A stretch of 64,000 bases of DNA, taken from IMG/VR virus record IMGVR_UViG_3300025723_000013. One strand, 5' to 3'. Below the pieces are notes generated by a model. It did not search any database and was not told where the DNA came from. It was given only the letters and a program-made list of their open reading frames with translations. The translations under genes and the position numbers were made by a program. Shown piece by piece: positions 4,054 to 60,012 of this stretch. Numbering within the stretch: position 1 is the first letter of the stretch; each line of letters begins with the position of its first letter. This DNA is from a virus (Duplodnaviria; Caudoviricetes).

Positions 4054-6301
4054 TGGCCTCTACTTGTTTAACTAAAAGAACATCAACATATTTCAGGATT
4101 AATTCATCTTCCGCAGAATCTACCTCAACCACTCCTCCGTTGGTTAATTTTCCAAACAAAATTTCCTTGCTGAGCGGCTTCTTGATATGCTCGTCGATCA
4201 CACGCTGCAATGGTCTAGCACCCATTTTACTGTTAAATCCTTTCTTGACAAGAAATTCAGTTGCTTCATTAGTGAGTTGTACAAAAACATTACGATCTTT
4301 GATCAAACTATTAAGATCATTAATAAACTTCTTGATGACCTTGATCATGGTGGCATGATCCAACTTACCAAATTTGATTATACCATCTAACCGATTACGG
4401 AATTCGGGTGCAAAAAATCTATTGACAGCATCTTTAGGATCACTGTCTCGTTCTAGACTACCGAAGCCTACTGAATTTTTCTCCGCGTCTGCTGCTCCTA
4501 AATTGCTGGTCATGATGATAATAGCGTTTCTTCCATCGGCCTTCTTGCCATTGCTGCCGGTTACAAATCCATTATCCATCAGCTGAAGTAGTACTGTCAA
4601 CACACCGGGATGAGCCTTTTCAACTTCGTCAAACAACAAAATGCCATTTGGATGCTCTTGTAACTTGGTAATCAATTGACCTGCATTGTCCTCAAAGCCC
4701 ACATATCCTGGAGGACTGCCTATAAATTTTGCCACAGAATGCTGTTCTTGGTATTCGCTCATGTCAAATCGTATTAATTCAACACCCATATTGGCAGACA
4801 ATTGTTTGGCTGCCTCGGTTTTACCTACTCCGGTTGGACCAACAAACAAAAAATTACCCACTGGACGATTGATAGATTTTAATCCAGCCTGGGCTATAAA
4901 AATCTTATCCAAAAGTGCTTCAATGGCGCTTTCTTGTCCGTAAACCTTTGATCTCATATTTTTTTCAAGATCTCTTAGATTGTTGTTTTCCTTGGCAGCG
5001 ATTTGATCTAATGGTAAACCTGTAGCTTTAGCCACTTCGAACACGATTTCGTCATGATCCACTAAACCGTTTTCTTCGTCTCGCAACTTAAATCTTGCAC
5101 TGGCACAGTCAATAAGATCCAGCGCCTTATCGGGCAATTTCTTATCACTGATGTATTTGATACTGTACTTGACACTGTCTATGACAGCTTGCTTGGTAAT
5201 TTTTACATTGTGATGTTTTTCGTAGTATTTTTTCACTCCGCTTACAATTTTGATAGCTGTAGATTCGTCGGGTTCGTTTATAACCACACGCTGGAATCGG
5301 CGCATCAAGGCACGATCTTTTTCAAAATGCTTACGAAACTCTTCCCAAGTAGTACTAGCAATTACCTTGATACCGCCTTTGGACAACGCCGGCTTGAGCA
5401 TGTTGCTCATGTCATTGCTGCCGCCACTGACCGCACCAGCACCGCTCATCATATGTGCTTCGTCAATGAACAAAATACAGTTTTTCTTCTTTTCAAGAGC
5501 AGCTAGAACATTTTTTAAACGTTCCTCAAAGTCGCCGCGATATTTGCTTCCAGCCAACATTGAAGAAATATCCAAAGAATATACCGAATGATTTTGTATG
5601 AATTTGGGAACATTACCTTCAACTATTTTTTTAGCAACTCCTTCAGCAATGGCAGTTTTTCCCACGCCCGGATCACCAATTAGCATCACGTTGCTTTTGG
5701 TTCGGCGCGCTAAAATAAGTGTGAGATCTTCGATTTCTTTTTCTCGACCAATAACTGGATCAATTTGTTTGTTTTTGGCCTTAGAAGTTAGATTCACACA
5801 ATACTGCACTAGAAACTTTTCCAGCTGTCGTTCATTTGATTCAATGGCTTCTTTTTCTTCGATAATGCTGCCATCTTTCACGATAAATTCTAAAAACTTG
5901 TCTTTTTCGATGCCGGCTTTGCGCATAAAATAATTTGCATGACTGTTTTTTTCCGAAAACAAACTTATCAAGCAATCTACCGGTTCAATCTGCTGCCGGC
6001 CACTGAACAACACCTGTGTAAATGCTCGATTTAACATTCTTTCTACAGTATTGGTCTTTCTTGGTTTTTCACCTCCAACCAATGTGGAAATCTCTAAAAG
6101 TTCACTGGTGATATATTTTTCTAAATTGGATCTTAGATCCACAACATCGGCACCATATGTAATCAACATATCGGAAAAAGCTTCGTTAGAAATCATGCCG
6201 TATAAAAAGTGCTCGAGAGTGATGTATTCATGATTATTTTGAACAGCCAGCAAAATTGATTGCTCAAACATCTCAGATAAATCTTTATTTGGTTCTAGCA
6301 T
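4025..6301 (-). CDS. clpA: ATP-dependent Clp protease ATP-binding subunit ClpA
   Basis: Clp N-domain, two AAA+ modules (GDPGVGKT/FIDEAH and GPTGVGKT/LFDEVEKAH), VGF ClpP-docking loop, MGARPLQR. Confidence 0.95.
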   Translation of the reverse strand: MLEPNKDLSEMFEQSILLAVQNNHEYITLEHFLYGMISNEAFSDMLITYGADVVDLRSNLEKYITSELLEISTLVGGEKPRKTNTVERMLNRAFTQVLFSGRQQIEPVDCLISLFSEKNSHANYFMRKAGIEKDKFLEFIVKDGSIIEEKEAIESNERQLEKFLVQYCVNLTSKAKNKQIDPVIGREKEIEDLTLILARRTKSNVMLIGDPGVGKTAIAEGVAKKIVEGNVPKFIQNHSVYSLDISSMLAGSKYRGDFEERLKNVLAALEKKKNCILFIDEAHMMSGAGAVSGGSNDMSNMLKPALSKGGIKVIASTTWEEFRKHFEKDRALMRRFQRVVINEPDESTAIKIVSGVKKYYEKHHNVKITKQAVIDSVKYSIKYISDKKLPDKALDLIDCASARFKLRDEENGLVDHDEIVFEVAKATGLPLDQIAAKENNNLRDLEKNMRSKVYGQESAIEALLDKIFIAQAGLKSINRPVGNFLFVGPTGVGKTEAAKQLSANMGVELIRFDMSEYQEQHSVAKFIGSPPGYVGFEDNAGQLITKLQEHPNGILLFDEVEKAHPGVLTVLLQLMDNGFVTGSNGKKADGRNAIIIMTSNLGAADAEKNSVGFGSLERDSDPKDAVNRFFAPEFRNRLDGIIKFGKLDHATMIKVIKKFINDLNSLIKDRNVFVQLTNEATEFLVKKGFNSKMGARPLQRVIDEHIKKPLSKEILFGKLTNGGVVEVDSAEDELILKYVDVLLVKQVEANDDQESENQ

Positions 6302-17376: not shown

Positions 17377-20300
17377 TTAATTTATTGTAAAGGTTGAGGT
17401 AGTTGACGGGTACACTGCTCCTGGGCTGGTCAATGTAATGGCCGCAGTGCCTGCTGATGCCAAATATGTTGATGGTATCACCGCGGTCACCTGTGTAGAA
17501 CTGTTATAGGTGGTAGATAGTGCAACGCCGTTCCAGTTTACAGTTGTGCCAGGTGGACCAGACACGAAAAATTTGCCAGTCACTGTGAGAGTGATATTGG
17601 TACTTCCATGTGCTATATTAGTCGGTGATATGCCAAGCAGTTGCGGCGTTGGTACAGTAGCGGTTGTGTGATTGGTTAACCAGTTGTACACTGCAACGCC
17701 TGCTCCCTGTCCAGGAATATAGTTGCCCGATGCATCATACTGAGTTAGGCCAAAATTTACATTGTAGGCTGGGTTTTGTGGACTTGTCCAATTCCATGCA
17801 ACATATGAAGCATTGTTTTGATCCGCCCATTTGGTCATAAAATCTATATGAGGTTCGCCCTGCGTGGCTTGTGGACCAATAAGTCCTCCATCCTCAGTCA
17901 TGATCACAGGAATGTTGGCTGCTTGTAGTTGTTTGTACCAATAATCAAAATTACTAGTTCCTTGATACGCATCGCCGCCGGTTTTCCCATATATCCAAGA
18001 AGGATCGGCTGTATATGGATAACTCTGAGTTGGAAACCCACCACCGGGATAAGCATGCCATCCATGTGCCAATTGCGGATTAGATGCCACCTGTAAATTG
18101 CCTCCAACTAATATCTTATCGGTTGGGAACCATCCTTTGTAATTTTGAGCTTGTTGGGTAAATGTTGGTCCGTTTATAACACACACATTTTGAGCGCCCG
18201 TGGTTCGAATAGCATCAATAACTTGTTGATATCCTAAAACATTTATTGGAGCTTGAGAAACAACAGTTGCGGCAGTGTCAATGTCATATCCCCATTGGGT
18301 ATTCGCTGGCCAGCTGCCACCGTTAAGCATTAGATTTCTAACAAAAGGTTGATTACTAGAATTGCTATCCAAATATGGTTCATTGAATATTTCAAATATG
18401 ATTCCGTCGTTTTGAATTCCCGGAGCCACAGGAGGAGCCTGTGTGCCAAACGTGTTTGCTATGGATTTCCAAAAATCAAGATCCGTGTCAGCGTTCATGA
18501 AAGCCGATTGACCTATCGGGGTCGCCAACCGTCTCGATGGAGTTCCGGTCACTGGATCAGTCAATGTCAAATATGGAGCGCTCCAATGAATCTCTAGGAT
18601 CACTCGGCATCCCAAGGCCTGTGCTGCTTGAACAGCAGCAATAGTTGCTGCACGAGTAGATCCGTAAAGATCTGCGTTCCTAGAAGGTGCATTTGCCCAT
18701 TGTGTAAAGAAGCCTTGACTGTTCCTAACTGTGGTATCAACATCCCAACATGTTATGCCCAACCAGGAACCTGCGTTCATAGGAATTCTCACTATGCTGC
18801 ATTTCCATTTGGCCAATACTGCGTATCGAGGAACAATGCCCTCCCATATGATTTCATTATTATTTCGAACTGCGTACTGTAATCCGCCCAAATTTACTCC
18901 GCGTAACTGTAGATAGTTATTGTTTGCGTCAACAAATATGCCACCGCTGCTGGCCACTTTTACAGTCAATGATGCTGTTGTTACTGGCTGAGCAACAAAA
19001 GTTTGTATAGGATAAATTTGAGGAATTTGTCCAATGCCATAAGCCCCAACTTGAATATCGACCGAGATAGGCGCGGCATTGGGTACCGAAAGCAAGTGGG
19101 CAGGTATTATTGCTTGTATTTGAGTAGGACTAATTTGCGTGCTAGATAAACTATGGGATTGATCTAGGGTATCGCCCGACCCATTCCAGGTTACACCTCT
19201 ATATGATGGAAATACTGTACCAGGTATGGATTGCAGTGTAACAGTGATGTCCGGAGATCCTACCGCTGCGCTGAGGCGTGACAGATAGTAACTGGAATAA
19301 ACGTTGCCGCTAACTGTAAATGTCAAGGGCAAAGACACTGTAGTGGCGCCCGGGGTAGATACAGTAACAGGAAAACTGCCAGGATTTATCAAATTGGTAG
19401 CAGTTACCGTCGCAGTTAGCCCAGTTGAACTTCCAAAGAATGTGGGCAATGCCACTCCATTCCAATTAATTACCGAATTTGAAGTGAAATTAGTTCCTGT
19501 TACAGTCAGCGTTATAGAGCTTAAAGTGCTAGCAGTCTGAGTAGGCGACATGCTGAGCAATCTTGGGGTGGGCGCTGTGGGGTTGACGTGATTTTTCGTC
19601 CAATTGTAGACAGCTACTCCTGCTCCTTGGATAGGAACAACAGACGGAGGTGATGTGTTAGCAGCAGTTGCGTACTGTGTTAGATAATATTGGCAACTGG
19701 CAATATTGTAATTTTGATTTGCGGTATATTGCGAGGCAATATAAGATACATTATTTTGATCTGACCAGTTTTCCATAAATGTAATATGAGGTTCACCTTG
19801 TGAAGCACTGGTTCCACCTAAGCCTCCGTCCTCGGTAATAAGTACGGGAATTCCTGCATTTAAAATCTGTTGATACCAATGATCCCATCCCTGGCTGGTA
19901 TCATCTGTTCCTGTCTTTCCGTATATGCTACCTGTTATTGTATAAGGGTAGGCCGATTGTGGATTTCCTACTGGATACGCATGCCATCCATGGGCTAGTT
20001 GAGAACCGGAAGTGCCTGTTGATAATGAATCAGTAGGGAACCAGCTTGTGTAATTTTGTGCTGATTGTGTGCGGTAAGCTCCATTAATTATGCATACATT
20101 GTTGGCTCCATTGGCTCGAATGGCATTCACTACCTGTGTGTATCCTAAAATACCAATTGAAGTTGATGAGATTATTGAAATTCCATTATCGACGTCTACA
20201 CCAAATGGTAGATTCGGTGGGAATGATCCACCTTGCAACATCAATGAATATGCTGTGGCTGTGCTAACAGAACCATTGATATCAAGATATGGTTCATTGA

Positions 20301-23300
20301 AAATTTCAAATAGCACTGCTGCATTTGTAATACCAGGATACGGAGAAGGATTGTTTGTTCCAAAAGTTTGCGCCATGGATATCCAAAAGGATAGATCTGT
20401 ATTGGTATTCATAAATTCGGATTTACCAGTAGGAGTGAGTAAATGAGTCACTCCTCCTAATGTAATACTAGGAGCACTGCAATGCAAATCAAGTATTACA
20501 TAGCATCCTACAGCCTGCGCCGCTGCGATGGCTGTGTATACTGTTTGTTTATAATTTCCCCAGTAATCGCAGTTAAATGAATTAGCCCATGCTCCGTTGT
20601 TTTGATTGTAAGTTGTTAATCCCAACCACGCTGCGGCGTTGAGAGAGATTCTTGCAACGTTGGGTTTCCAGGTTTGGAATACGGACCAATCTGGTATTTG
20701 CCCGCCCCATTGTGATACGTAATTTGCAGTTGCAGTTGTTAACGCAGATACAGGCGCAAATGCCAAACTGGAAAAGTTAGCGCCGCGTAGCTGTACAAAA
20801 TTTCCATTTTGATCAACTAGAGTATTACCGGAAACCTTTGTACTTATTCCGTTTATGTATAAAGGCACTGCTGAACTTATGCCACCCCCCAATCCGGGAC
20901 TCAGCACAGTAATGTTCAACACAGTGGCCGAGGACAAACTACTGGTAGGCAGTGCGAAAGTTAACTTATTTGTACTTGCGAAGTTAGTAGTTACTGGAAC
21001 TCCGTTAATGCGGACTACAGAATTGGAAACAAAATTAGAGCCATTCACTGTCACTGTAGCAGTTGTACTACCTTGCAGCGCATTTGAAGGAGATAGATTA
21101 TTAATAACCGGAGATGCAACACTGGTCATTTGGAAAGGACCCAGTATGGCCGAATCTCCTTGTCTGCTCCACGGTGGTAATCTATAGTGTAGATATACAG
21201 CGCGGCCATCTTCAAACCTTCCACCGTTAACCTGTATGGTTATACTGGTACTGGTCCAGTTAATCCACGGCTGTATCTCGCGTATGGTGCTGTTTGACCA
21301 TGATGTGTTATCTGTTAAGTAGATGTCACCGTCGCCGACGTCTACAAAGCAATTGGCAAAATAGCGCCATGAGTTGCTGTTGAGAGGAGTACGATTGTAT
21401 CCCCCCAACATCACCGCAGTGGACTGCGTATTGAGATTGGTTGCAGAAGTAATCACAGGCAAATAATTTGTCAACGAGTCGCCGTCGTAGGCCACTATGG
21501 TTCCACCGGCTCCTGTAAATTTAATATAAACTGTTTTCTGAGACCAACCAGATAATGTAGTACTCTGAGAAGGTATTGGAGTACCATAAGCACTGCCAGG
21601 CAGTGTTAAACTTGGATTGGGATAACTCTCGTCATTCACTGTCCATGATGTTGTGGTACTGTATTGTCCGTTAAATGGCGTTGCATATGCAAAATAAAAA
21701 CCAGTTCCCCCTTGGTTATTATAAAAGGAATTATTATAAACACCAAAATATTTGTAATTGTTATCGCTGGTTAAAATACCAACAGTGCCTGCGCTGCTGG
21801 ACGAAGCAGTAGAACTCACGGTAACTGTGCCTGCAGCCTGATTTATGTTGGTTATATAGGTATTTTGTGGGAAATACCCGTTGGAATTAGATATATAAAG
21901 TCCCGGATTAGCAAAAATAAATTGACTACAATTAGTGATAGTACTGCTATTATAGGTGATTTGTCCGCCAAATGTGGCTTGATAGAGCACAGCATTTGTT
22001 CCGTTGTTCAGTGCTTTGTTACTCAAAGTAAGTGTAGCAGTTGATCCGGATATGGCTATATTGGTAATGGTGGTACCTGATGGGAATAGGTTGCTTACAA
22101 TGTAAGATCCTGTGGTGTATCCGGAAGGAAGTGCACTGCTTGATACAAAGTTTACTGTGCTGGTGTTAGCAAAAACCAGTCCAACATACGACCCATTACT
22201 GATGCCGCTGGATGAAGACCAATATGGATCTGCTCTTTCCCACCAAGTGGCCATCAAGGTGTGTGGAACTCCTAGATAGGGATATTTCACTGACAATAAT
22301 TGATCATAGCCTCTATTGCCAGATCCAATACCCAATCCACCTATAATATTTTGGACTCTGTTATTTGGCCCATAAATTGTTGTTGGCGTGTCCACTGTCC
22401 CTGCAGGATAGTTGATTGATGGACGCACAAATGGCACGGCTCTGTAAGCCATGGCAGCTGATGTATTTGCTGCAATAACAGGATCTGATAGGTCTGGAAG
22501 AGCAGCATCTGTCCAAGTAGCAGTCAACACGCTGTTGATAGACCCATTATCCCATGCCACTGGCGACGATAACAGTTTGTTGGTAAACGTCATTCCTGTG
22601 GCTGTGCTGGTTATAACAAAAGTCTGATTGTGTGCCAATAGCGTCATAGACGCAGTCGACAATATGTTTACAGGAGTTGAATAAATTACACGTTCATTTT
22701 GATCGTACACATACAGTGTTCGATTGGTTCCGGTACTTAGTTGCCCTTGATTGAACACGTATGAAATAGCAGTTCCGGACCAAGATACCAGGCACTGCGG
22801 CTCTGAATAGGTGCCGTCGCTGATTTCAACCCTAGCAGCGGTAAAGTCATAATAGATGTCGGCAAAGTTTGCGGTATAGGGATTGGTAAAGTAAACTTGG
22901 TTTTGACCATTCACGTTGAATAATTTTCCAAGGTAAGCCGAACTGTCCATTTCGCTGCCTAGGGTCATGCCTGCATTATTTTGATTTCCACTGGCGTCAG
23001 TATAAGGAGCGTTCCACACGGGATTGATATCAAGCAGTCCGGCTGGATCTATAGCAGGAAGCACACTAAGGGGAGGTTTAATTGTGCTGTTGCCAAAATA
23101 CAGTGTTCCTGCTCCGGTAGCAGCATTGCCATTCACTCGGCTGAGCACAGTGCCAGTACTGCCCACTCGCCACTTTACTGCGTGTTCCCAACGATTCCAC
23201 TGTGTAACATCGGGCACTTGATTAGAGGTTGATGTGCTCAGTGACCCGCTCACATTGCTGGCATTGTTATAACCCGGCCAATTTAAATTGGTCGCGCCAG

Positions 23301-26300
23301 TTAATCCTCCCGGCATGATAAAGCCAGCAGCGTTGTTGTAGGGCTTTTGTGTAAAATTAGTAGAATCAGTCAGTATTGTTTCAGTATCGTTGTTACTACC
23401 GAAATGATATGATCTACGAGTTCGTTTCTGGTCCGAGATCACATTGTTTACGCCGCCTTGACTTTGAAACTTGTATGACAAGTATTCTCCGGTGTAGCTT
23501 GCAGTGGTAATACCATTCACTGATACCACCAAACCTCCGCAATATCTATCGGTATACATGGTAGGATTGCCCATACCTCTCTGGAAATAATATCCCGATT
23601 GTGACACGCCTCCTGCCACTAGCCCAAAGCCTGTGAATGGAAAGCCATTCCAGATAGTGGCTGTGAATGGAGGACAAGTAATGTGTTTGGTTGAATTTGA
23701 ATAGAACGCAGTCATGCCGCCCAGTACTCGATTCCAGTCGGCGTCGGTATATGTGGTAGGCAAGCCCTGATCCATTTGTGCCCACACTAGATGCATGTGG
23801 TTATAGCCCTTCCAGCTATAGTTGCCAAAGTTGTAATTGGCTCTTGTGCCAAAATTGATACCACTAGGTGCCGACACTGATGCCAATTGACCATGCACCA
23901 AATTGCTTGGCGGATTATTCTGCACCAGTGCTGAAAAGATCGCTCCAAGGGTAAGATAACTTGGATTTTGAGCCCCGCCTTCGATGGGATTAAATGTGGC
24001 CGTAAATGTGCCAACGGTTCCTACGGATTTGTATTCTGCAGTGGCTGCATTTTGATTGGGCTTATAGTAAAAATTCCACATGGCACCGTTTATCAAAGGC
24101 GCAGTGACAGAAGCGGTACCTTGGAAAAAAGTAGTTGAACTTGATAGTGTTAATCCGGTAAATCCTGTGCCTGGAGTCGGTGTGGTTGGAACCGTGGCAT
24201 CGACTTCGTCAAATGTTACCGCTACAAATAATCCGTTGTTAGAAAGATTACTGGTTAATGTATTATTAGACACTGTGACGCTGATGGCATTGGTATTGGT
24301 ACCAGATGGCACGTTTCTTTGTAAATTTATAGCAGATGCAACTACAGGATTAGCAGCTACTCCTGTTATTTCAAACACACTAAAAGCAACCCAGTCTTCA
24401 AAAGCTCCCGATGTCGGGGCCATATTGACAGTATAGGTTCCGCTGGACACATTACTTGCTGCCCAATGTCCGACTGATTGAGTTCCTTGTATGCCTAAGT
24501 TAAGTCCGACAAGATCATCATATCTACCAAGAAAATTATAATTATTAACTCCGTCAGTAGCAGTCATAGTTGGATACAAACTATAATAATTTGGCCAAGT
24601 TCCTACCACATACAAAGTGCTGCCTGCCTGCACATTGTTTAGTGTCACGTTCCAGTTTGAACTGATAGCCCCTCCTTGCGGGTAATATCCATTGTACTGT
24701 GACATCTGTCTTATTGTGGGATTATTATTGGCAACAACAACAAATGCGAAGAGAGACGTACCACCGCCGGGAGCAGGATTTACTACATCAAGTGAAATAG
24801 TGTTAGGCTGTGCCACAAATGAACTGGGAAGTACACAATTCAATGTTGAACTGCTGACATAGGTGGTTGCAGTCAGCAGTGTTGCATTGGCATAAATCTG
24901 AGATCCGGGGATGAATCCGCTGCCGAATAATGTCAAGTTAATAGAATTGCTACTGGTTGTGATGATACTGGGCGAAACTTGTGAAATACTTGGAAAAGGA
25001 TTTCCGCTGGGAATTGTGGATGTGGTAACATTAAAGACAGATGCGGCCGATACTCCCCCGCCGGGTGCAGGATTTGTCACGGTAATGGCCAGCGCGGCCA
25101 CATTGGTCAATAGCAACGACGCCAATGTGGCTGTGAATAGACTGTTACCAACATAGGTGCTGGGAATATTGGATCCATTGACTTGCACAGTGGAACTAGA
25201 CACATATCCATTACCGGTCAATGTTATAATGGTTGTAGAAGTACCTGCAACCACAGTGGATGGGTTGATACTGCTGATAGACGGAACTGGATTTACTGCA
25301 ACAACAGTAAAGATTGTTCCGTTGGATGTACCTCCGCCAGGTGATGGATTGACCACCGTGACGGTTGCGGTCGCTGCGTTGCTCAGTTGACCTGCAGGGA
25401 TCGTGGCCTGGATTTGTGTAGAAGTGTTAACATTAATTGCTAACGAACTGCTGTTATAATAAACTAAAGAACCGGCAACAAAACCTGTTCCTGATATGGT
25501 CAGTGTGGCGCCGGAAGCTCCGGCTATGGCTGTCAATGGAACTATAGAGCTTACCGAAGGAGTTGGATTTACTCCGCTAGATCCATTGATTGACAACGGT
25601 TCGTTGTAGAAATAGTAAGCACCCGCCGGTCCTAGGTTGCTGTAGATGACCGGCACGGTGCCCGAAGCGCCACCCGTGGCTCCCTGAACCACTTGATAGG
25701 CCTGGGTCACAGTGGATCCAGACCATGAACCATTTACCCAGTTATTGCCAAGGAATGTGGCATATGTTGGGACATTGCTATTCAAGGTTCCTGTTTGTGA
25801 AGGGGTTCCGGTAGTGGTTGAAACATAAGTTAAATCAGTACTGCCCACGTGCAGTATCGTGGCCGTTCCTTGGAACACTCCATTAAACCCAGTTCCTCCA
25901 GTGATGCCAGAAATATTAACGGTGGCCAGATATCCCGGCAAAAAACTTCCCTTGGTATATCCCACGGTCACTGTATTACCTGACACCTTGACACTGGTGA
26001 TTGGATTTATGATAGTGCCAACATACGCATCATTGCGGAAAGCTGCGTAGTTTAGAGGGGTTCCTTGTATTTCAATGTTGTTATTCTGTAGTGTGGCACC
26101 GCCTGTGCCCACGTCATATCCATAAACATCGCCAATCCAAAAATGCACTCTATTAGTGATCAATCTATTCCCGGTAAAACTCAGCCCTGTGCCGTTATTT
26201 GATAAACCCAACACATAGCACAATGCCGTGGCATCTACGCCAGTAGCTGCAAACAAATTGCTGTTGTATGTGTTGTTGGTCACTGTGTTGGTAGCACCTT

Positions 26301-28530
26301 GATAATACAATCCACGTGCTGTGCTATTTTGATAGGAGTTGCTCACAGGATTGAACACAGTGCCTTGCATGGCGTGTGTCCAAATAGTGTTGGTAGAAAT
26401 GGTATTGTTTTGCGGATTGCCAAATTTCATGGTGAATCCGTCGGCATAGTTTTCATAATCGTCTAATTGACCGGTAGGCGACGGGAATTGATTTCCAATT
26501 CTAGTATACATGCCTTCAAACCAATTGTGATACACAGTGGTTGGCTGCCCTGCAGGACTGCTAACATTCATAAAACAAGACTGCGGATGGCAGCCGGTAA
26601 AGTACATGTTGTTGTTATAAATTTTTTGACTGTATGGTACCACCAATCGTCCACTAGTGGTACTGATCCAGGTAGCACTGGATGAGCCAATGAGCGGCAT
26701 TATTGATCCATTGGTCCACCAGGTGTCATGCCAAAATTCATTTTCGTATACGTTGGCCGAGATACCATTAATGGCAACATCTCTACCGGATATAAATCTA
26801 TTCCATCTAATTATTGGCCAACCTTCTTGTCCCACTATATTGGCCTGGAATTGACGATCTTGCACGGTCCACCCGTGATCTTCAAATGTGCAATATTCGA
26901 TCATGCTGGTGTAGGGATATGGAGTACCTTTGGTATTTTGATTATCGGTCAACAACACGCATTGTGCATCACAAATTGCTCCGCAGGAATAGGTATTCCA
27001 ATAGAAATACAGTCCTCGCAGTTGCAAGAACATGTAATAAGCATAGAATTTGATCGGAGAAGGACCAGTTCCATATAGTCCCTGTCGCATATTGGTCGAG
27101 CGACCTGCTCCGTTGCGAATTGTTCCATTGATAATTTCAATAAAGCCGTTGTACTGATATGATCCATATCCGCCAATGCCATATGCTTCTGCCGAATTGT
27201 CGCCGGTGGCAAATGTGTTGCTGGTTCCATACGTGACAGTGTGACCGTTGAGATCAATAACGATGTTACTGACACTGAGCGGAATGTTGATGCACCATGT
27301 TGGGCTGGTCAAATCGCAAGTTAGGGTATAATAGCAATTGCTGGCAGTACACACATATTGTTGACCATTGGTGTATCCGCCGTCCACGGCGTTGGAATTG
27401 GTATTTTGTATGGTGATTGAACGGGCTAGCCCGGTATTGAGAGCCGTTACTGTTTGCTTCCCTGCTGGTAATCTTAGTGGGCCCACTGCAGATAGATCAT
27501 TTGGCGCGGCCAATCCTACCGATGTACCGGTAATCCATGCAGGAATGGCGGGGAAAAACCATGGTCTCAAACTGGTTTTATAGTATGTGGAACTGGTGAG
27601 TCCGGTGCCTACTCCGGACGGTGATACTCCCAATGCAAATCGACTCTGTATGGTTTGACCTTGTGAATCTCTAACTTGCACATACAATAAATTTCCTTCA
27701 GTGACTCCCGGAGTACCACTGACCATGCCGGTCGAACTGTTAATGGTCCACACATTTTGCGGAATAGCAGGCACAGTGGTGCCAGTGGTCCAAAAATTAA
27801 TAGGAACACCTGTATAATTACTGCTGGCAGTGGTAGTAGCCAATGGAGGCTGGTAAAACGAGTAATTGTACGGCGGGTATCCACCTTGAACCTGCACAGC
27901 GGCAGAAAATGCTGTGTTTTGCACAGGACTATTTCCATTTGCATCGGATAGCACATAGCAGTCAACTATGGTGGCCAGTGCATTGGATGAGAATGTGATT
28001 GGGGAGTTGGTATATCCTGAATTTGGAAATGGCTGTGATATTTGAACAGTGGAACTGTCGAGGATGGCTGTAACGTAAACTCCATTTATTGTGTATACCA
28101 ATACATTATTGAGATTGGGATCGGTTGAAGTAAGGAATTGACCCACTACTATTCCGGTAGTGGTTGTTAAATTGGTTATGGTTATACTGTTTTTGGTAAA
28201 TGTGCCCGAAGTAACAGTTTTAAATGAAGGTATTCCGCCTGTTTGGTTGGTATATTGGATGGTTCCTGATGCGCTTGATCCGCCGGTTATAATGAAAGTG
28301 CCATTGTAACCGATTAGGCCATTTCCTAGCATGCCAGTAACTACAACAGTGTTGCCGATTTTGGGATTTATTGGATTGAAAGGTTTAACGGTAATAGTCA
28401 CGGTGGTTCCGCTAACAGTTGCGGATGTTATGGAGTTTGTAGAACCGTTTTGTAGGTCATAGACCTGTTGGAATACCAACGGTCCTGGAACCGTTGTAGG
28501 AGACCCCATCATCATGTTGAGTAAACTCAT
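17377..28530 (-). CDS. Giant (3717 aa) tail fibre/adhesin: Ig-like + beta-helix region + 7 IPT/TIG-like repeats + two GH5 glycoside hydrolase domains
   Basis: IPT repeats (P.I..ISP....G...LT..G.NF...S....NG); GH5 motifs twice (LRG.N, R, VILD/EIH, FEIFNEPY, AHGWHAYP, TEDGG); located in tail module. Confidence 0.85.
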   Translation of the reverse strand: MSLLNMMMGSPTTVPGPLVFQQVYDLQNGSTNSITSATVSGTTVTITVKPFNPINPKIGNTVVVTGMLGNGLIGYNGTFIITGGSSASGTIQYTNQTGGIPSFKTVTSGTFTKNSITITNLTTTTGIVVGQFLTSTDPNLNNVLVYTINGVYVTAILDSSTVQISQPFPNSGYTNSPITFSSNALATIVDCYVLSDANGNSPVQNTAFSAAVQVQGGYPPYNYSFYQPPLATTTASSNYTGVPINFWTTGTTVPAIPQNVWTINSSTGMVSGTPGVTEGNLLYVQVRDSQGQTIQSRFALGVSPSGVGTGLTSSTYYKTSLRPWFFPAIPAWITGTSVGLAAPNDLSAVGPLRLPAGKQTVTALNTGLARSITIQNTNSNAVDGGYTNGQQYVCTASNCYYTLTCDLTSPTWCINIPLSVSNIVIDLNGHTVTYGTSNTFATGDNSAEAYGIGGYGSYQYNGFIEIINGTIRNGAGRSTNMRQGLYGTGPSPIKFYAYYMFLQLRGLYFYWNTYSCGAICDAQCVLLTDNQNTKGTPYPYTSMIEYCTFEDHGWTVQDRQFQANIVGQEGWPIIRWNRFISGRDVAINGISANVYENEFWHDTWWTNGSIMPLIGSSSATWISTTSGRLVVPYSQKIYNNNMYFTGCHPQSCFMNVSSPAGQPTTVYHNWFEGMYTRIGNQFPSPTGQLDDYENYADGFTMKFGNPQNNTISTNTIWTHAMQGTVFNPVSNSYQNSTARGLYYQGATNTVTNNTYNSNLFAATGVDATALCYVLGLSNNGTGLSFTGNRLITNRVHFWIGDVYGYDVGTGGATLQNNNIEIQGTPLNYAAFRNDAYVGTIINPITSVKVSGNTVTVGYTKGSFLPGYLATVNISGITGGTGFNGVFQGTATILHVGSTDLTYVSTTTGTPSQTGTLNSNVPTYATFLGNNWVNGSWSGSTVTQAYQVVQGATGGASGTVPVIYSNLGPAGAYYFYNEPLSINGSSGVNPTPSVSSIVPLTAIAGASGATLTISGTGFVAGSLVYYNSSSLAINVNTSTQIQATIPAGQLSNAATATVTVVNPSPGGGTSNGTIFTVVAVNPVPSISSINPSTVVAGTSTTIITLTGNGYVSSSTVQVNGSNIPSTYVGNSLFTATLASLLLTNVAALAITVTNPAPGGGVSAASVFNVTTSTIPSGNPFPSISQVSPSIITTSSNSINLTLFGSGFIPGSQIYANATLLTATTYVSSSTLNCVLPSSFVAQPNTISLDVVNPAPGGGTSLFAFVVVANNNPTIRQMSQYNGYYPQGGAISSNWNVTLNNVQAGSTLYVVGTWPNYYSLYPTMTATDGVNNYNFLGRYDDLVGLNLGIQGTQSVGHWAASNVSSGTYTVNMAPTSGAFEDWVAFSVFEITGVAANPVVASAINLQRNVPSGTNTNAISVTVSNNTLTSNLSNNGLFVAVTFDEVDATVPTTPTPGTGFTGLTLSSSTTFFQGTASVTAPLINGAMWNFYYKPNQNAATAEYKSVGTVGTFTATFNPIEGGAQNPSYLTLGAIFSALVQNNPPSNLVHGQLASVSAPSGINFGTRANYNFGNYSWKGYNHMHLVWAQMDQGLPTTYTDADWNRVLGGMTAFYSNSTKHITCPPFTATIWNGFPFTGFGLVAGGVSQSGYYFQRGMGNPTMYTDRYCGGLVVSVNGITTASYTGEYLSYKFQSQGGVNNVISDQKRTRRSYHFGSNNDTETILTDSTNFTQKPYNNAAGFIMPGGLTGATNLNWPGYNNASNVSGSLSTSTSNQVPDVTQWNRWEHAVKWRVGSTGTVLSRVNGNAATGAGTLYFGNSTIKPPLSVLPAIDPAGLLDINPVWNAPYTDASGNQNNAGMTLGSEMDSSAYLGKLFNVNGQNQVYFTNPYTANFADIYYDFTAARVEISDGTYSEPQCLVSWSGTAISYVFNQGQLSTGTNRTLYVYDQNERVIYSTPVNILSTASMTLLAHNQTFVITSTATGMTFTNKLLSSPVAWDNGSINSVLTATWTDAALPDLSDPVIAANTSAAMAYRAVPFVRPSINYPAGTVDTPTTIYGPNNRVQNIIGGLGIGSGNRGYDQLLSVKYPYLGVPHTLMATWWERADPYWSSSSGISNGSYVGLVFANTSTVNFVSSSALPSGYTTGSYIVSNLFPSGTTITNIAISGSTATLTLSNKALNNGTNAVLYQATFGGQITYNSSTITNCSQFIFANPGLYISNSNGYFPQNTYITNINQAAGTVTVSSTASSSSAGTVGILTSDNNYKYFGVYNNSFYNNQGGTGFYFAYATPFNGQYSTTTSWTVNDESYPNPSLTLPGSAYGTPIPSQSTTLSGWSQKTVYIKFTGAGGTIVAYDGDSLTNYLPVITSATNLNTQSTAVMLGGYNRTPLNSNSWRYFANCFVDVGDGDIYLTDNTSWSNSTIREIQPWINWTSTSITIQVNGGRFEDGRAVYLHYRLPPWSRQGDSAILGPFQMTSVASPVINNLSPSNALQGSTTATVTVNGSNFVSNSVVRINGVPVTTNFASTNKLTFALPTSSLSSATVLNITVLSPGLGGGISSAVPLYINGISTKVSGNTLVDQNGNFVQLRGANFSSLAFAPVSALTTATANYVSQWGGQIPDWSVFQTWKPNVARISLNAAAWLGLTTYNQNNGAWANSFNCDYWGNYKQTVYTAIAAAQAVGCYVILDLHCSAPSITLGGVTHLLTPTGKSEFMNTNTDLSFWISMAQTFGTNNPSPYPGITNAAVLFEIFNEPYLDINGSVSTATAYSLMLQGGSFPPNLPFGVDVDNGISIISSTSIGILGYTQVVNAIRANGANNVCIINGAYRTQSAQNYTSWFPTDSLSTGTSGSQLAHGWHAYPVGNPQSAYPYTITGSIYGKTGTDDTSQGWDHWYQQILNAGIPVLITEDGGLGGTSASQGEPHITFMENWSDQNNVSYIASQYTANQNYNIASCQYYLTQYATAANTSPPSVVPIQGAGVAVYNWTKNHVNPTAPTPRLLSMSPTQTASTLSSITLTVTGTNFTSNSVINWNGVALPTFFGSSTGLTATVTATNLINPGSFPVTVSTPGATTVSLPLTFTVSGNVYSSYYLSRLSAAVGSPDITVTLQSIPGTVFPSYRGVTWNGSGDTLDQSHSLSSTQISPTQIQAIIPAHLLSVPNAAPISVDIQVGAYGIGQIPQIYPIQTFVAQPVTTASLTVKVASSGGIFVDANNNYLQLRGVNLGGLQYAVRNNNEIIWEGIVPRYAVLAKWKCSIVRIPMNAGSWLGITCWDVDTTVRNSQGFFTQWANAPSRNADLYGSTRAATIAAVQAAQALGCRVILEIHWSAPYLTLTDPVTGTPSRRLATPIGQSAFMNADTDLDFWKSIANTFGTQAPPVAPGIQNDGIIFEIFNEPYLDSNSSNQPFVRNLMLNGGSWPANTQWGYDIDTAATVVSQAPINVLGYQQVIDAIRTTGAQNVCVINGPTFTQQAQNYKGWFPTDKILVGGNLQVASNPQLAHGWHAYPGGGFPTQSYPYTADPSWIYGKTGGDAYQGTSNFDYWYKQLQAANIPVIMTEDGGLIGPQATQGEPHIDFMTKWADQNNASYVAWNWTSPQNPAYNVNFGLTQYDASGNYIPGQGAGVAVYNWLTNHTTATVPTPQLLGISPTNIAHGSTNITLTVTGKFFVSGPPGTTVNWNGVALSTTYNSSTQVTAVIPSTYLASAGTAAITLTSPGAVYPSTTSTFTIN

Positions 28531-40664: not shown

Positions 40665-40700
40665 AATAGTAGAAACACAACAGCGTGTTTCTACTATTTA
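40665..40700. promoter_or_regulatory. Perfect 14-bp inverted repeat overlapping late promoter
   Basis: AATAGTAGAAACAC-aacagc-GTGTTTCTACTATT; TAAATA (minus) at 40695-40700. Confidence 0.65.
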
Positions 40701-57534: not shown

Positions 57535-57629
57535 TGGTACCTCCGGGTGGATTCGAACCACCGACGCTCCCTAATCTGGGGACATGTGCCGTGTATAAGA
57601 CGGGTGTTTTACCGCTAAACTACGGAGGT
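57535..57629 (-). tRNA. tRNA-Ile(TAT) with 25-nt variable arm
   Basis: ACCTCCG/CGGAGGT, CCCGT-CTTATAC-ACGGC, V arm TCCC-CAGATTA-GGGA, A-CCA. Confidence 0.8.
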
Positions 57630-57639
57630 ATTGATTAAA

Positions 57640-57778
57640 TTAGATATTGATAAACCAGTTTACTATTCATTTGCTGCCTGATGTGGAGCTTACAGCTCTT
57701 TTACCGGTATCACAGGCTATGGCGCTGAACAAGGTTAGTCTTGTACTTTGTCTAACGAGCTAGATTATCAATATCTAA
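57640..57778 (-). ncRNA. Unidentified 139-nt structured RNA
   Basis: Perfect 14-bp terminal stem TTAGATATTGATAA/TTATCAATATCTAA, inner hairpins (ACAAG/CTTGT, GCCTG/CAGGC, GAGC/GCTC); starts at predicted +1 of promoter 57785-57813. Confidence 0.7.
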
Positions 57779-57784
57779 GACTTA

Positions 57785-57813
57785 ACTTTACAGTGTTTTC
57801 TGAACAAAGTCAA
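57785..57813 (-). promoter_or_regulatory. sigma70 promoter for ncRNA-tRNA-Ile(UAU)
   Basis: TTGACT-17-TAAAGT. Confidence 0.75.
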
Positions 57814-58388
57814 CCCCAACTAATACCAGCGTCGTTTTCTTGAGCAAATTTTATTATTTCAATTAATTGATCAATATAATGATTGATTTGATTCTTGCTG
57901 CGACCCACATCAATCATTCTAGGACCTCTAGGGCCAATGTGCGTAACTCCTTGATCATCGGTGTATTGTCGACCCATTGGTCCACTTATATCGCTAGGTT
58001 CTTGAGTATACCGATCGGTACTTTGATTCTTTAGTTGAATAAGTCTACGCATGAATTTGGGTAGATCATTGTGATGTATTATTCCTGAATAATCTTGTTT
58101 ATGTGAAGGAACGCCTAACATCTTTTGTATTTCAAAACCGTTGGTATTGCTAACGTTTAATTCAGGAGCATCGGTGCTCCATTCTTCTGTTTCGCCCTTA
58201 CCATCACATCGTCTGCAAGGGAACTCTCCATTTCCAAAATCTTCCTTGCCTGTACCATTACAAACAAAACACGGTTCTTTTACTTTTTTTTGCCAATCAA
58301 TAACGGACCAAACTCTTTCTCCATCGTGGATTTTTTCTTTAACAGGGCTAAAAGTCATGCCTTCTAATATTAATTCTCGTATACGCAT
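57810..58388 (-). CDS. Late protein with DnaJ-type CxxCxGxG zinc-finger repeats
   Basis: CFVCNGTG and CRRCDGKG; TATAAATA 5 nt before ATG; MRIRELILE leader. Confidence 0.75.
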   Translation of the reverse strand: MRIRELILEGMTFSPVKEKIHDGERVWSVIDWQKKVKEPCFVCNGTGKEDFGNGEFPCRRCDGKGETEEWSTDAPELNVSNTNGFEIQKMLGVPSHKQDYSGIIHHNDLPKFMRRLIQLKNQSTDRYTQEPSDISGPMGRQYTDDQGVTHIGPRGPRMIDVGRSKNQINHYIDQLIEIIKFAQENDAGISWG

Positions 58389-58406
58389 CACTTTATTTAT
58401 AAAAAT

Positions 58407-58496
58407 TGGCGGAAGCGATAGGATTCGAACCTATGGTGAGTTTCCCCACGTCAGTTTTCAAGACTGATGCAATAAACCAGACTCTGCCACGCTTCC
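58407..58496 (-). tRNA. tRNA-Ser(TGA)
   Basis: GGAAGCG/CGCTTCC, TCAGT-CTTGAAA-ACTGA, long V arm, G-CCA. Confidence 0.94.
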
Positions 58497-58505
58497 GCAA
58501 TCCAA

Positions 58506-58775
58506 TTATGCCGTACGCTTGATCAAATGATAACCAAACTGGGTCTGCACAGGATCACTTACTGATCCTACCGCGGTGGCACGCGCAGCATCATCAAATG
58601 GTTTGACCATCATGCCTGGGCCAAACATTCCAAGGTCGCCGCCTTGTTTACCGCTCGGGCATTTGCTGTGAGTCGAGGCCAACTCTGCAAAGTCTTGACC
58701 TTGATCGATCTGACCTCTGAGGGCAACTGCCTCGTCCAATGTTGCTACTAAAATATGACTGGCTCTAATTTGCAT
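58506..58775 (-). CDS. ppiC: Parvulin-type peptidyl-prolyl isomerase
   Basis: IRASHILV, FAELA..HS.CPSG..GGDLG.F..G.MV..FD, PVQTQFGYHLI. Confidence 0.95.
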   Translation of the reverse strand: MQIRASHILVATLDEAVALRGQIDQGQDFAELASTHSKCPSGKQGGDLGMFGPGMMVKPFDDAARATAVGSVSDPVQTQFGYHLIKRTA

Positions 58776-58795
58776 TTTGTTTCCTTTTAAAAAAA

Positions 58796-58871
58796 TGGTG
58801 GGCCCCCGGGGATTCGAACCCCGAACCAAAAGATTATGAGTCTTCTGCTCTAACCGTTGAGCTAGAGGCCC
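58796..58871 (-). tRNA. tRNA-CAT (likely Ile2/lysidine type; elongator Met not excluded)
   Basis: GGGCCTC/GGGGCCC paired G1-C72, GAAGA-CTCATAA-TCTTT, A-CCA. Confidence 0.85.
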
Positions 58872-58881
58872 TACATCACTT

Positions 58882-58910
58882 AATATACTACCTTTGCAAA
58901 TGAATTGCAA
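58882..58910 (-). promoter_or_regulatory. sigma70 promoter upstream of tRNA-CAT
   Basis: TTGCAA-17-TATATT. Confidence 0.65.
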
Positions 58911-58914
58911 GATA

Positions 58915-59325
58915 TCAATAAGTGATTGTTACCCCAACTGCAGGACTGTTAGGTACTGCTTGGCTGTTTCCACTGTTGTTGGTGACTGCCATCTGTTTGC
59001 CAAGGCTGCTGCATCCGTTGATATTACAGGCTTTGGCACGAACATATATGGTCACTCCGGGTTGAACCCCGGGGTAGTTATGCTTGGTTGGCATCACTCC
59101 ATTTTCCGGATACAGTATCACCGATGGTCTGGTAAACGCGGTATCAGGGATTGGACCTTGTGAAATAAACAGTTCAACACTGGTCAACGCATATGTGCCC
59201 GACAACGGACTATTGTCCGTTGCCGTTGTGGGCAAACCCAATGTGATTACTGCTGTTCCCACTCGTTGTGCGTATGCTGTGATTGCCATCAGGCACAAAA
59301 AACCAGTCAGTATGAATTTTTTCAT
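58915..59325 (-). CDS. Secreted fibronectin type III-like protein
   Basis: Signal peptide (..TAYA), PTTATDNSPL, IYVRAKACN..GCS. Confidence 0.65.
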   Translation of the reverse strand: MKKFILTGFLCLMAITAYAQRVGTAVITLGLPTTATDNSPLSGTYALTSVELFISQGPIPDTAFTRPSVILYPENGVMPTKHNYPGVQPGVTIYVRAKACNINGCSSLGKQMAVTNNSGNSQAVPNSPAVGVTITY

Positions 59326-59334
59326 GATTGATCC

Positions 59335-59832
59335 TTATTTGGTTGAGGGCACAGGTGTCTTGACCGAACCAGAGTTTACAGTGGGCAATGACTGTGTCTT
59401 GTTCACAACTGCGGGTACTGTTGCAGGAGCAATCTGGAAAGTGATGCTCAACAAGGTTGGAGCATTGGGCGCAGCCAAAGTGGTAGGAATATATTTTGAT
59501 ACTTCGCTGCTATATGCAGATGTCAATCCATTTGTGGTACTCACAGTTACAGCAAAATAATATGTGAGATTGGGAGTGAGCCCTGTGATAGTGACAGTGG
59601 TAGGAGTAACACCGCCGGCAGACGGCACCGCCACACTAGAAGTATAATTTCCACTCGAGGTTCCATACCATACAGTGTATCCTGTGATCTGTCCCACAGT
59701 TAATGGAGTATTGTCAGTGTATGCAGTAGGGGGAGTCCAACTGGCAGTGGCCTGATTGATTGGTGTTTGTGCGGCCGATGCAAATGAGATCAAGGGCAAG
59801 GTCAATGCAATTAACGATAGAATTTTTTTCAT
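59335..59832 (-). CDS. Secreted fibronectin type III-domain protein
   Basis: Signal peptide (..ASAA), ASWTPP, GYTVWYGT.SG.Y, ITGL.P..TYYFAVT, S.YSSEV. Confidence 0.8.
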   Translation of the reverse strand: MKKILSLIALTLPLISFASAAQTPINQATASWTPPTAYTDNTPLTVGQITGYTVWYGTSSGNYTSSVAVPSAGGVTPTTVTITGLTPNLTYYFAVTVSTTNGLTSAYSSEVSKYIPTTLAAPNAPTLLSITFQIAPATVPAVVNKTQSLPTVNSGSVKTPVPSTK

Positions 59833-59852
59833 GATATTTCCTTTAGGGTGAA

Positions 59853-59902
59853 GATATCATAAAATGTAAAGCTCTGATACTTTATGATATCAGGGATATT
59901 TA
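59853..59902 (-). promoter_or_regulatory. Late promoter followed by 5'-terminal 11-bp hairpin
   Basis: TAAATA-tccct-GATATCATAAA...TTTATGATATC then AAGGA SD. Confidence 0.6.
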
Positions 59903-59937
59903 CTTTATTTAATTTTGGTCAGGTTGTGATTTGAGTA

Positions 59938-60012
59938 TGGCTGGGGAGGAAAGATTCGAACTTCCGAATGGCGGAATCAAAATCCGCTGCCTTACCGCTT
60001 GGCGACACCCCA
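59938..60012 (-). tRNA. tRNA-Gln(TTG)
   Basis: TGGGGTG/CTCCCCA, GCGGA-TTTTGAT-TCCGC, G-CCA. Confidence 0.92.

Follow-up and report, generated by a model that had tools for sequence, protein, structure and literature searches.

What is the 139-nt element, bounded by an inverted repeat, that fills the gap in front of a tRNA-Ile(UAU) gene in a phage tRNA array, and does it specify an RNA with a role of its own? The stretch of DNA analysed here (hereafter the window; 64,000 nt, IMG/VR record IMGVR_UViG_3300025723_000013) belongs to an uncultured jumbo phage and encodes tail-fibre and baseplate-like proteins, a ClpA-like ATPase with 41-44% identity to jumbo phage counterparts, and the 3717-aa product of a single minus-strand ORF (17377-28530) that adjoins the tail-fibre-like genes. 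The same DNA recurs on one ENA metagenome contig, 284 kb long, and several from JGI, and no GenBank phage shared DNA with this region, except for a tRNA-Gly. All 11 tRNA genes of the window (51854-60012) lie on the minus strand, and the RNA of the element is therefore the reverse complement of the plus-strand text.

The initial annotation of this locus proposed an unidentified structured RNA, closed by a perfect 14-bp stem and placed 10 nt upstream of the tRNA-Ile(UAU) gene. Stem and position are exactly as described: TTAGATATTGATAA at 57640-57653 has its exact reverse complement at 57765-57778, and the gap to the tRNA (57629..57535, minus strand) is exactly 10 nt. Taken alone, the repeat is weak evidence, since at least one such 14-bp repeat is present in 37 of 200 shuffled windows; in the real window, three perfect inverted repeats within 400 nt reach 14 bp or more, compared with a mean of 0.29 in dinucleotide shuffles. 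The other two are found at 61770-61783/61976-61989, rich in A/T runs, and at 40665/40685. The minimum free energy of the element on the minus strand is -35.1 kcal/mol, with a z-score of -3.0, and what places the element beyond chance is conservation together with compensatory change in 56 distinct homologues.

A strand-specific folded RNA family in phage tRNA arrays

In ten contigs with an identical 193-aa protein, the region was 100% identical, save for one with 2 mismatches, and these contigs therefore offered no useful variation for comparison. Synteny based on this protein, encoded by the ORF upstream of the element, yielded no homologous elements near its homologues (45-71% identity), because these lie in other contexts (gp13/gp15-like genes, SOD, ClpS) with no tRNAs; a search of viral contigs for relatives through the 193-aa and 138-aa neighbour proteins found none. 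A pattern derived from the long-armed tRNA-Ile(UAU) retrieved nine IMG/VR loci, four of which carry an obvious homologue just upstream of tRNA-Ile genes. Covariance models R1 and then R2 were built from the homologues found upstream of tRNA-Ile genes, and collections were scanned with the conserved blocks ACCTTG(TT)...GARTAGTAAACTG, candidates being confirmed by the covariance models; the pattern ACCTTG-N-ARTAGTAAAC was too loose, returning at least 115 mostly chance loci and three true ones. We thereby gathered 56 distinct homologues of 120-145 nt from uncultured viral and metagenome contigs (individual loci are given below by L numbers). The carriers are large uncultured phages, mostly from lake metagenomes, and the homologues lie almost always within tRNA arrays, on the tRNA strand. 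The 185,579 species genomes contained one true match, on a 2.8-kb contig made up nearly entirely of tRNA genes and binned to a Polynucleobacter MAG.

Blastn of the element and of a consensus-like member against 50,697 GenBank phage records gave no match. Rfam 15 matched no family on the window element at E values up to 10, nor on homologues at E up to 1 (seven loci) or at the gathering threshold (ten more loci), and a literature search found no description of this RNA motif. The family is new, in that no description of it was found in Rfam 15 or the searchable literature. Its kind is already known: structured RNAs of phage tRNA islands that probably self-associate.

The consensus fold was obtained with RNAalifold on independent MAFFT alignments. 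Across the 56 sequences, 93.5% of the cells at paired positions of the MAFFT alignment form standard pairs, compared with 30-48% when the partners are slid by 1-3 columns. Compensatory changes were found in 26 of 43 pairs (28 of 43 in a 20-sequence set), and none of 500 shuffles reached the observed values. The structured RNA proposed in the initial annotation thus exists as a family, conserved in 56 homologues with a covarying fold. The inverted repeat is clearly conserved in relatives, where the closing helix P1 is kept by compensatory changes in 11 of its 16 pairs; its length is conserved and its sequence is not. The same annotation counted at least three hairpins. Hairpins are indeed present, but in the conserved fold a single short hairpin and a long, hairpin-capped arm extend from a three-way junction (Table 1).

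Three parts meet at the junction: P1 (16-19 bp), the hairpin P2 and the long arm P3-P4-P5. The strands that link them, CUC, C and UAAA, are invariant or nearly so, the single C standing between P2 and the long arm, and about 50 nucleotides are invariant or near-invariant overall. In the window, P1 consists of 14 perfect pairs, a U.U mismatch and four further inward pairs, about 19 positions in all. The P2 stem includes a conserved N.A mismatch and a G.U pair. P3 is paired in 100% of the 56 sequences, with one compensatory change from U-A to C-G (L024), and is followed by a 2-bp GC/GC step that separates it from P4, for which the compensatory variants CCUA/UAGG, CCGA/UCGG and CCCA/UGGG were found. 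Further along the long arm lies a large asymmetric internal loop, with UGAU, a hexamer and AA on its 5' side and ACAU on its 3' side. The P5 loop is a GUA triloop in the window and in many homologues, AUA or CUA in others, and a 6-nt loop in the L020 group.

Read from the opposite strand, the conserved U.G and G.U pairs would turn into mismatches. The many U.G pairs, together with models that score the tRNA strand only (110.7 bits with R1 and 115.9 bits with R2 for the window element, minus strand only), fix the orientation of the RNA. We conclude that the window element is one copy of a strongly conserved, strand-specific folded RNA family.

Table 1. Coordinates in the window of the RNA element, its parts and its flanking signals; features described by sequence analysis and alignment.
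Feature	Position	Strand	Remarks
Sigma70-like promoter (predicted)	57785..57813	minus	-35 TTGACT 57813-57808, 17-nt spacer, -10 TAAAGT 57790-57785
Whole 139-nt RNA, three-way junction	57640..57778	minus	RNA position n = 57779 - n; alignments A4, A6
P1 5' strand (RNA 1-19)	57760..57778	minus	14 pairs, U.U, 4 pairs; in the family, 11/16 pairs compensatory
Junction strand CUC (RNA 20-22), nearly invariant	57757..57759	minus	alignment A6 columns
P2 hairpin (RNA 23-45), 7-position stem	57734..57756	minus	4/6 stem pairs covary
P2 9-nt loop AAAGUACAA	57741-57749	minus	self-complementary core GUAC at 57743-57746
P3 5' strand UUGUUC (RNA 47-52), invariant, with U.G and G.U pairs	57727..57732	minus	pairs with GAAUAG
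P4 5' strand GCCUG (RNA 62-66)	57713..57717	minus	pairs with CAGGC 57676-57680
Hexamer ACCGGU (RNA 71-76), self-complementary, internal loop	57703..57708	minus	palindrome in 56/56
P5 terminal hairpin GAGCU-GUA-AGCUC (RNA 81-93)	57686..57698	minus	8/8 predicted pairs covary (A4)
P4 3' strand CAGGC (RNA 99-103)	57676..57680	minus	pairs with GCCUG
P3 3' strand GAAUAG (RNA 111-116)	57663..57668	minus	pairs with UUGUUC
Junction strand UAAA (RNA 117-120), invariant, leads into P1	57659..57662	minus	alignment A6
P1 3' strand (RNA 121-139)	57640..57658	minus	family U.G pairs mark minus as the RNA strand
tRNA-Ile(UAU), long extra arm, 10 nt downstream	57535..57629	minus	ARAGORN; Rfam 58.6 bits

Genomic context and probable release of the RNA

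Across the loci, 673 tRNA genes lie on the element strand and a single one on the opposite strand. According to ARAGORN, the 3' end of the upstream tRNA, most often tRNA-Glu(UUC), falls 0 nt before the element in 21 of the 56 loci, and in at least seven further loci (L308, L333, L211, L300, L273, L270 and L274) the last A of its CCA is the first base of the element. A downstream tRNA begins within 20 nt in 32 of the 56 loci, often at a distance of 1, 7, 10 or 16 nt. The identities of the flanking tRNAs vary (Glu, Leu, Cys and Lys upstream; Leu, Tyr, Met, Ser, Ile and Ala downstream). In many loci the flanks follow the arrangement (UA)CCA, element, UGG(UA), such that the upstream CCA can extend P1 by 3-7 pairs; in these relatives the 16 bp of P1 and the 3-7 bp of the extension form a near-continuous duplex of 19-23 bp. 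The extension is zero in the window copy.

At this locus, the initial annotation had the 5' end of the RNA coincide with the +1 position of a promoter, and the sequence supports this placement. The sigma70-like promoter upstream of the element scores 9 out of 12 in a consensus scan, and its -10 box ends 6 nt before the first base of the RNA (TTGACT-17-TAAAGT-6 nt). The same geometry recurs in loci that have no upstream tRNA, as TTGACC-17-TATAAT-6 nt in L268, L296 and L169, and as TGGTATAAT-7 nt in L267. As read from these signals, the predicted 5' end of the RNA is either the promoter +1 (in the window and in three other lineages) or the base after the CCA of the upstream tRNA, and its 3' side is set by the next tRNA.

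In the maturation of tRNA operons, RNase P cuts the 5' ends of the tRNAs, and their 3' ends are then trimmed endo- and exonucleolytically. Because a tRNA usually lies within 1-17 nt downstream, tRNA processing probably releases the RNA, which would thus be excised as a discrete stable species by tRNA-processing enzymes. In the scheme that we propose, the tRNAs and the element would share a transcript, from which the element would emerge as a discrete stable RNA. For the window copy, transcription would start from its own sigma70-like promoter at the first base of the element, RNase P would cut the 5' end of tRNA-Ile(UAU) 10 nt downstream, freeing the 3' side of the element, and the remaining tail would then be shortened as far as P1. 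Most relatives would instead have their 5' end at the base that directly follows the CCA of an upstream tRNA.

Self-complementary loops and the nature of the RNA

The six nucleotides that follow UGAU in the internal loop form a perfect palindrome in all 56 sequences: ACUAGU in 44, CCUAGG in eight, UCUAGA in three and ACCGGU in one, the window copy. UCUAGA belongs to the three 120-nt variants, in which P5 is missing and the palindrome forms part of a hairpin loop. A maximum-likelihood tree computed with the palindrome columns masked requires four changes of the hexamer label, and well-supported branches force two origins of CCUAGG. All of these changes are double substitutions after which the hexamer is again self-complementary; a simple count puts the chance that two random substitutions in a hexamer restore a palindrome at about 1/15.

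The P2 loop follows a similar rule. Its sequences across the family include AAUGUACAC, AAAGUACAA, CAUGAUCAG and UAUGAUCAA, among others, and its core is GUAC in 38 of 56 sequences and GAUC in 12 of 56 (centre UA versus AU), the remaining six having UCGA. These six (the L020 group) carry a longer, different P2 without GUAC or GAUC. In the 50 sequences that have this loop, its centre is never non-complementary. The three-state label of the loop core (GUAC, GAUC, UCGA) requires nine changes on the tree, with at least four GUAC/GAUC switches separated by well-supported clades. The palindrome of the window P2 loop spans just 4 nt (GUAC).

An all-against-all scan of column covariation gave no convincing intramolecular or pseudoknot partner for the hexamer or the P2 loop. 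In single-sequence folding, the two palindromes are moderately accessible, with a mean unpaired probability of 0.65-0.67 versus 0.39 for all positions. Because neighbouring nucleotides within a single chain are unable to base-pair with one another, the covariation of the palindromes points to pairing between two copies of the RNA. The same kind of palindrome covariation supported the symmetric intermolecular kissing loops of OLE and GOLLD that were seen by cryo-EM (PMC12286853). That the RNA forms homodimers or larger assemblies through symmetric kissing loops is a prediction from these patterns to which we give roughly even odds, and the 6-bp self-duplexes would be weak (-4.8 to -8.3 kcal/mol).

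How does this RNA compare with known phage RNAs? The species 1 and 2 RNAs of T4 (rnaC and rnaD) are likewise small stable RNAs in a phage tRNA cluster, on the tRNA strand and a few nucleotides from tRNAs, and rnaC has the length of the window element, 139 nt. T4 species 1 and 2 are released by tRNA-processing enzymes. However, the T4 RNAs show no sequence or structure similarity to the new RNA: alignment gave scattered identities only, and model R1 found no match in the T4 tRNA region (L018) at E up to 1. A clear tRNA-like T-arm, GGGUUCGAAUCCC, is present in rnaC and absent from the new RNA, whereas palindromic loops and a 16-19-bp closing helix set the new RNA apart. The pRNA of phi29 is about 120-170 nt long, folds around a three-way junction with its 5' and 3' ends paired, and forms multimers through loop-loop pairing between molecules. 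Its two loops complement each other and are not palindromes, and its gene lies close to the genome end in small podoviruses. In our RNA, which recalls pRNA as a phage RNA of similar size with paired ends and a three-way junction, the loops are by contrast palindromic and the genes lie in tRNA islands, and Rfam gave no pRNA match on the element.

The dimer loop of the HIV-1 DIS is AAGCGCGCA. Like the kissing-loop dimer sites of HIV-1 DIS, OLE (L9.3) and GOLLD (L21a), the P2 hairpin presents a 9-nt loop in which a 5' purine precedes a self-complementary tetramer or hexamer at the centre, as in AAUGUACAC. OLE and GOLLD also resemble the new RNA in that their palindromes switch between alternative palindromes in evolution (PMC12286853). 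With the hexamer and the P2 loop, the new RNA shows the covarying loop palindromes by which symmetric kissing-loop RNAs are recognised. In contrast to these sites, its second palindrome is in an internal loop and not in a hairpin, except in the 120-nt variants, and its AU-rich palindromes are weaker, the dimers being predicted here from sequence.

GOLLD (RF02032) and ROOL have a similar setting, being phage-encoded and typically found beside tRNA islands. Both assemble from RNA alone into homo-oligomers through kissing loops, and palindrome covariation revealed some of these loops (PMC12286853). They are much larger, with many helices (about 500 nt or more for ROOL, more than 800 nt for GOLLD), than the five-helix, 120-145-nt RNA described here, with which they share no covariance-model similarity and whose oligomerisation is predicted from its sequence. 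Of the 17 scanned loci, two have GOLLD in the array that carries the new RNA, on its strand (L170:5164-5628 and L092:1-458, both minus), with scores of 198 bits in L170, where a tRNA is embedded in it, and 191 bits in L092; GOLLD was not found in the window or in ten other scanned loci.

Several other readings were discarded by eye, as the sequences do not fit: pairing of the P2 loop with the hexamer, a GNRA receptor formed by CCUAAC, a box C/D motif or k-turn at UGAU, and a 5S rRNA-like fold; nor did any family in Rfam match the element. A bacterial Y RNA (YrlA, RF02553), which combines a tRNA-like T-arm/D-arm module with a Ro-binding stem, was also rejected, with no YrlA match on the element and no T-loop motif in the consensus.

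The explanation that we favour for the whole, with a probability of about 0.6, is that of a tRNA-island phage RNA, released with the tRNAs, that would self-associate and act in trans. The free RNA would expose two self-complementary sequences, the internal-loop hexamer and the GUAC or GAUC of the P2 loop; symmetric kissing contacts between copies would then build a dimer or a larger assembly, which would act in trans during infection, in the manner of GOLLD or ROOL on a smaller scale. A host or phage partner would probably dock at the invariant junction and P3. The invariant junctions, the invariant wobble-paired P3, the purine-rich internal loops, the two self-pairing loops and the restriction to phage tRNA islands argue for a trans-acting particle with a specific partner over a processing spacer or a terminator. 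A fuller version, which we advance tentatively and hold somewhat short of even, is that a ~137-nt RNA excised from tRNA-island transcripts self-assembles by two independent symmetric kissing contacts into a dimer, ring or filament, and acts on a host or phage factor through the invariant junction. On balance, a small self-associating tRNA-island RNA with a role analogous to that of GOLLD and ROOL appears to be the best reading.

Four other explanations were weighed against this one, the first of which concerns release alone. As with rRNA precursors, the stable RNA might be freed by RNase III cleavage within the long AU-rich P1, as the initial annotation had suggested, and not by tRNA-processing enzymes. 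The 19 positions of P1 in the window, the 19-23 bp reached in relatives with the CCA/UGG extension, and a helix conserved in length and not in sequence are consistent with this, and a double-strand-specific nuclease would account for the lengthening of P1 by CCA/UGG pairing no less well than RNase P or 3' processing would. Substrates of RNase III offer about two turns, roughly 20 bp or more, of near-continuous dsRNA, which compares with 14 bp, a U.U mismatch and 4 bp in the window. However, the ends of the element coincide with tRNA ends or with the promoter +1, so release is already explained without RNase III; moreover, the window copy has no flank extension, and a staggered cut inside P1 would leave a 3' extension on the upstream tRNA. 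We therefore consider release by RNase III unlikely, although the extended helices are compatible with it. Less likely still is a purely cis-acting element of the tRNA operon, be it a processing insulator, a stabiliser or a terminator hairpin, with no trans function. Its constant embedding in tRNA arrays, the many loci in which P1 pairs with the CCA of an upstream tRNA and the U-rich sequence after P1 in some stand-alone copies (L268, L279) would suit such a role, but a stabiliser or terminator needs a hairpin alone, and here there are some 50 near-invariant nucleotides, a junction, five helices and two self-complementary loops. The neighbouring tRNAs also differ between loci, and thus no particular tRNA is served.

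A degenerate or derived tRNA-like molecule of the T4 species 1 type, serving as a tRNA mimic, for example as a decoy for tRNA-targeting host nucleases or tRNA-binding enzymes, is marginally less probable than the cis-acting element. The RNA does occupy a tRNA slot in the arrays, with spacers of 0-1 nt, the UAGCUCG at the boundary of P1 and the junction resembles, to the eye, the U8-A9-D-stem start of tRNAs, and T4 rnaC in the T4 tRNA cluster is also 139 nt long. Against this, the RNA has neither a T-arm (GTTCRANNC) nor an anticodon arm, its junction is three-way and not four-way, Rfam gave no tRNA (RF00005) match at E up to 10 and ARAGORN no tRNA within 57640-57778, and neither alignment nor covariance model likens it to rnaC or rnaD. 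At the far end of the scale, a chance inverted repeat or a DNA-level mobile element (a MITE with 14-bp TIRs) could be imagined from terminal repeats that look like TIRs and from the frequency of perfect 14-bp repeats in shuffled windows (37/200, as above). The comparative data exclude both: the element is single-copy in the window and present once per locus in homologues, its flanks show no target-site duplication, its terminal repeats vary between homologues yet stay complementary, with G.U pairs that fit RNA of one strand only, and its internal core is conserved across 56 sequences.

To our knowledge, none of the RNAs of phage tRNA islands, GOLLD, ROOL and T4 species 1 and 2, has a known function. 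The present family adds to them a small, covariation-rich member, with 56 sequences, five helices and palindrome covariation at two loops, whose short length of ~137 nt could make self-associating RNAs among phage tRNAs experimentally tractable. If the two kissing contacts exist, it would be among the smallest natural RNA-only quaternary assemblies and a minimal functional relative of the GOLLD and ROOL cages. The family also provides a covariance model with which to annotate a recurrent unannotated gap in jumbo phage tRNA arrays.

Other features of the tRNA arrays

Six loci (L160, L322, L298, L310, L266 and L170) carry a second conserved non-coding block of about 215 nt immediately upstream of the element. 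It mostly begins after the stop codon of an ORF, contains GGACAGGGUAACAACUCAGUCUAGGGC and ends with GUAGCUAGACACU, which abuts the element and whose last bases pair with the 3' flank of the element. The block is absent from the window, and no Rfam family was found in it in L160 and L170, the two that were scanned. In two of the 120-nt variants (L288 and L316), a perfect 12-bp palindrome, CCCTTATGCTTC...GAAGCATAAGGG, is followed by AACCA directly before the element; the arrangement recalls a minihelix made of an acceptor stem ending in NCCA, but a promoter match (TTGACA-17-TATGCT) overlaps it. The element-bearing tRNA array of L168 also contains, at 1980-2097 on the minus strand, a weak match to the Y RNA-like YrlA, scoring 27 bits where the gathering score is 69.

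The tRNAs themselves show some peculiarities. The extra arm of the window tRNA-Ile(UAU) reads UCCC-CAGAUUA-GGGA. In the nine IMG/VR loci (L019-L027), retrieved by a pattern that places no constraint on the extra arm, its stem covaries (GCAC/GUGC, GCGG/CCGC, GCGA/UCGC and GCGC/GCGC, among others), and the loop CAGAUUA is retained in most, L019 having CAGAUUG with a longer stem; the extra arm is thus conserved in phage tRNA-Ile(UAU). Although tRNA-Thr and tRNA-Asn normally have short variable loops, ARAGORN reports long versions of both on the minus strand of the window, tRNA-Thr(UGU) at 51854-51938 (85 nt) and tRNA-Asn(GUU) at 55207-55295 (89 nt). An extra weak Rfam tRNA match (55538-55607, minus, 35.4 bits) is absent from the ARAGORN list. 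Finally, in L169 the element is followed, about 80 nt downstream, by a match to a group I intron (5845-6030, minus, 64 bits).
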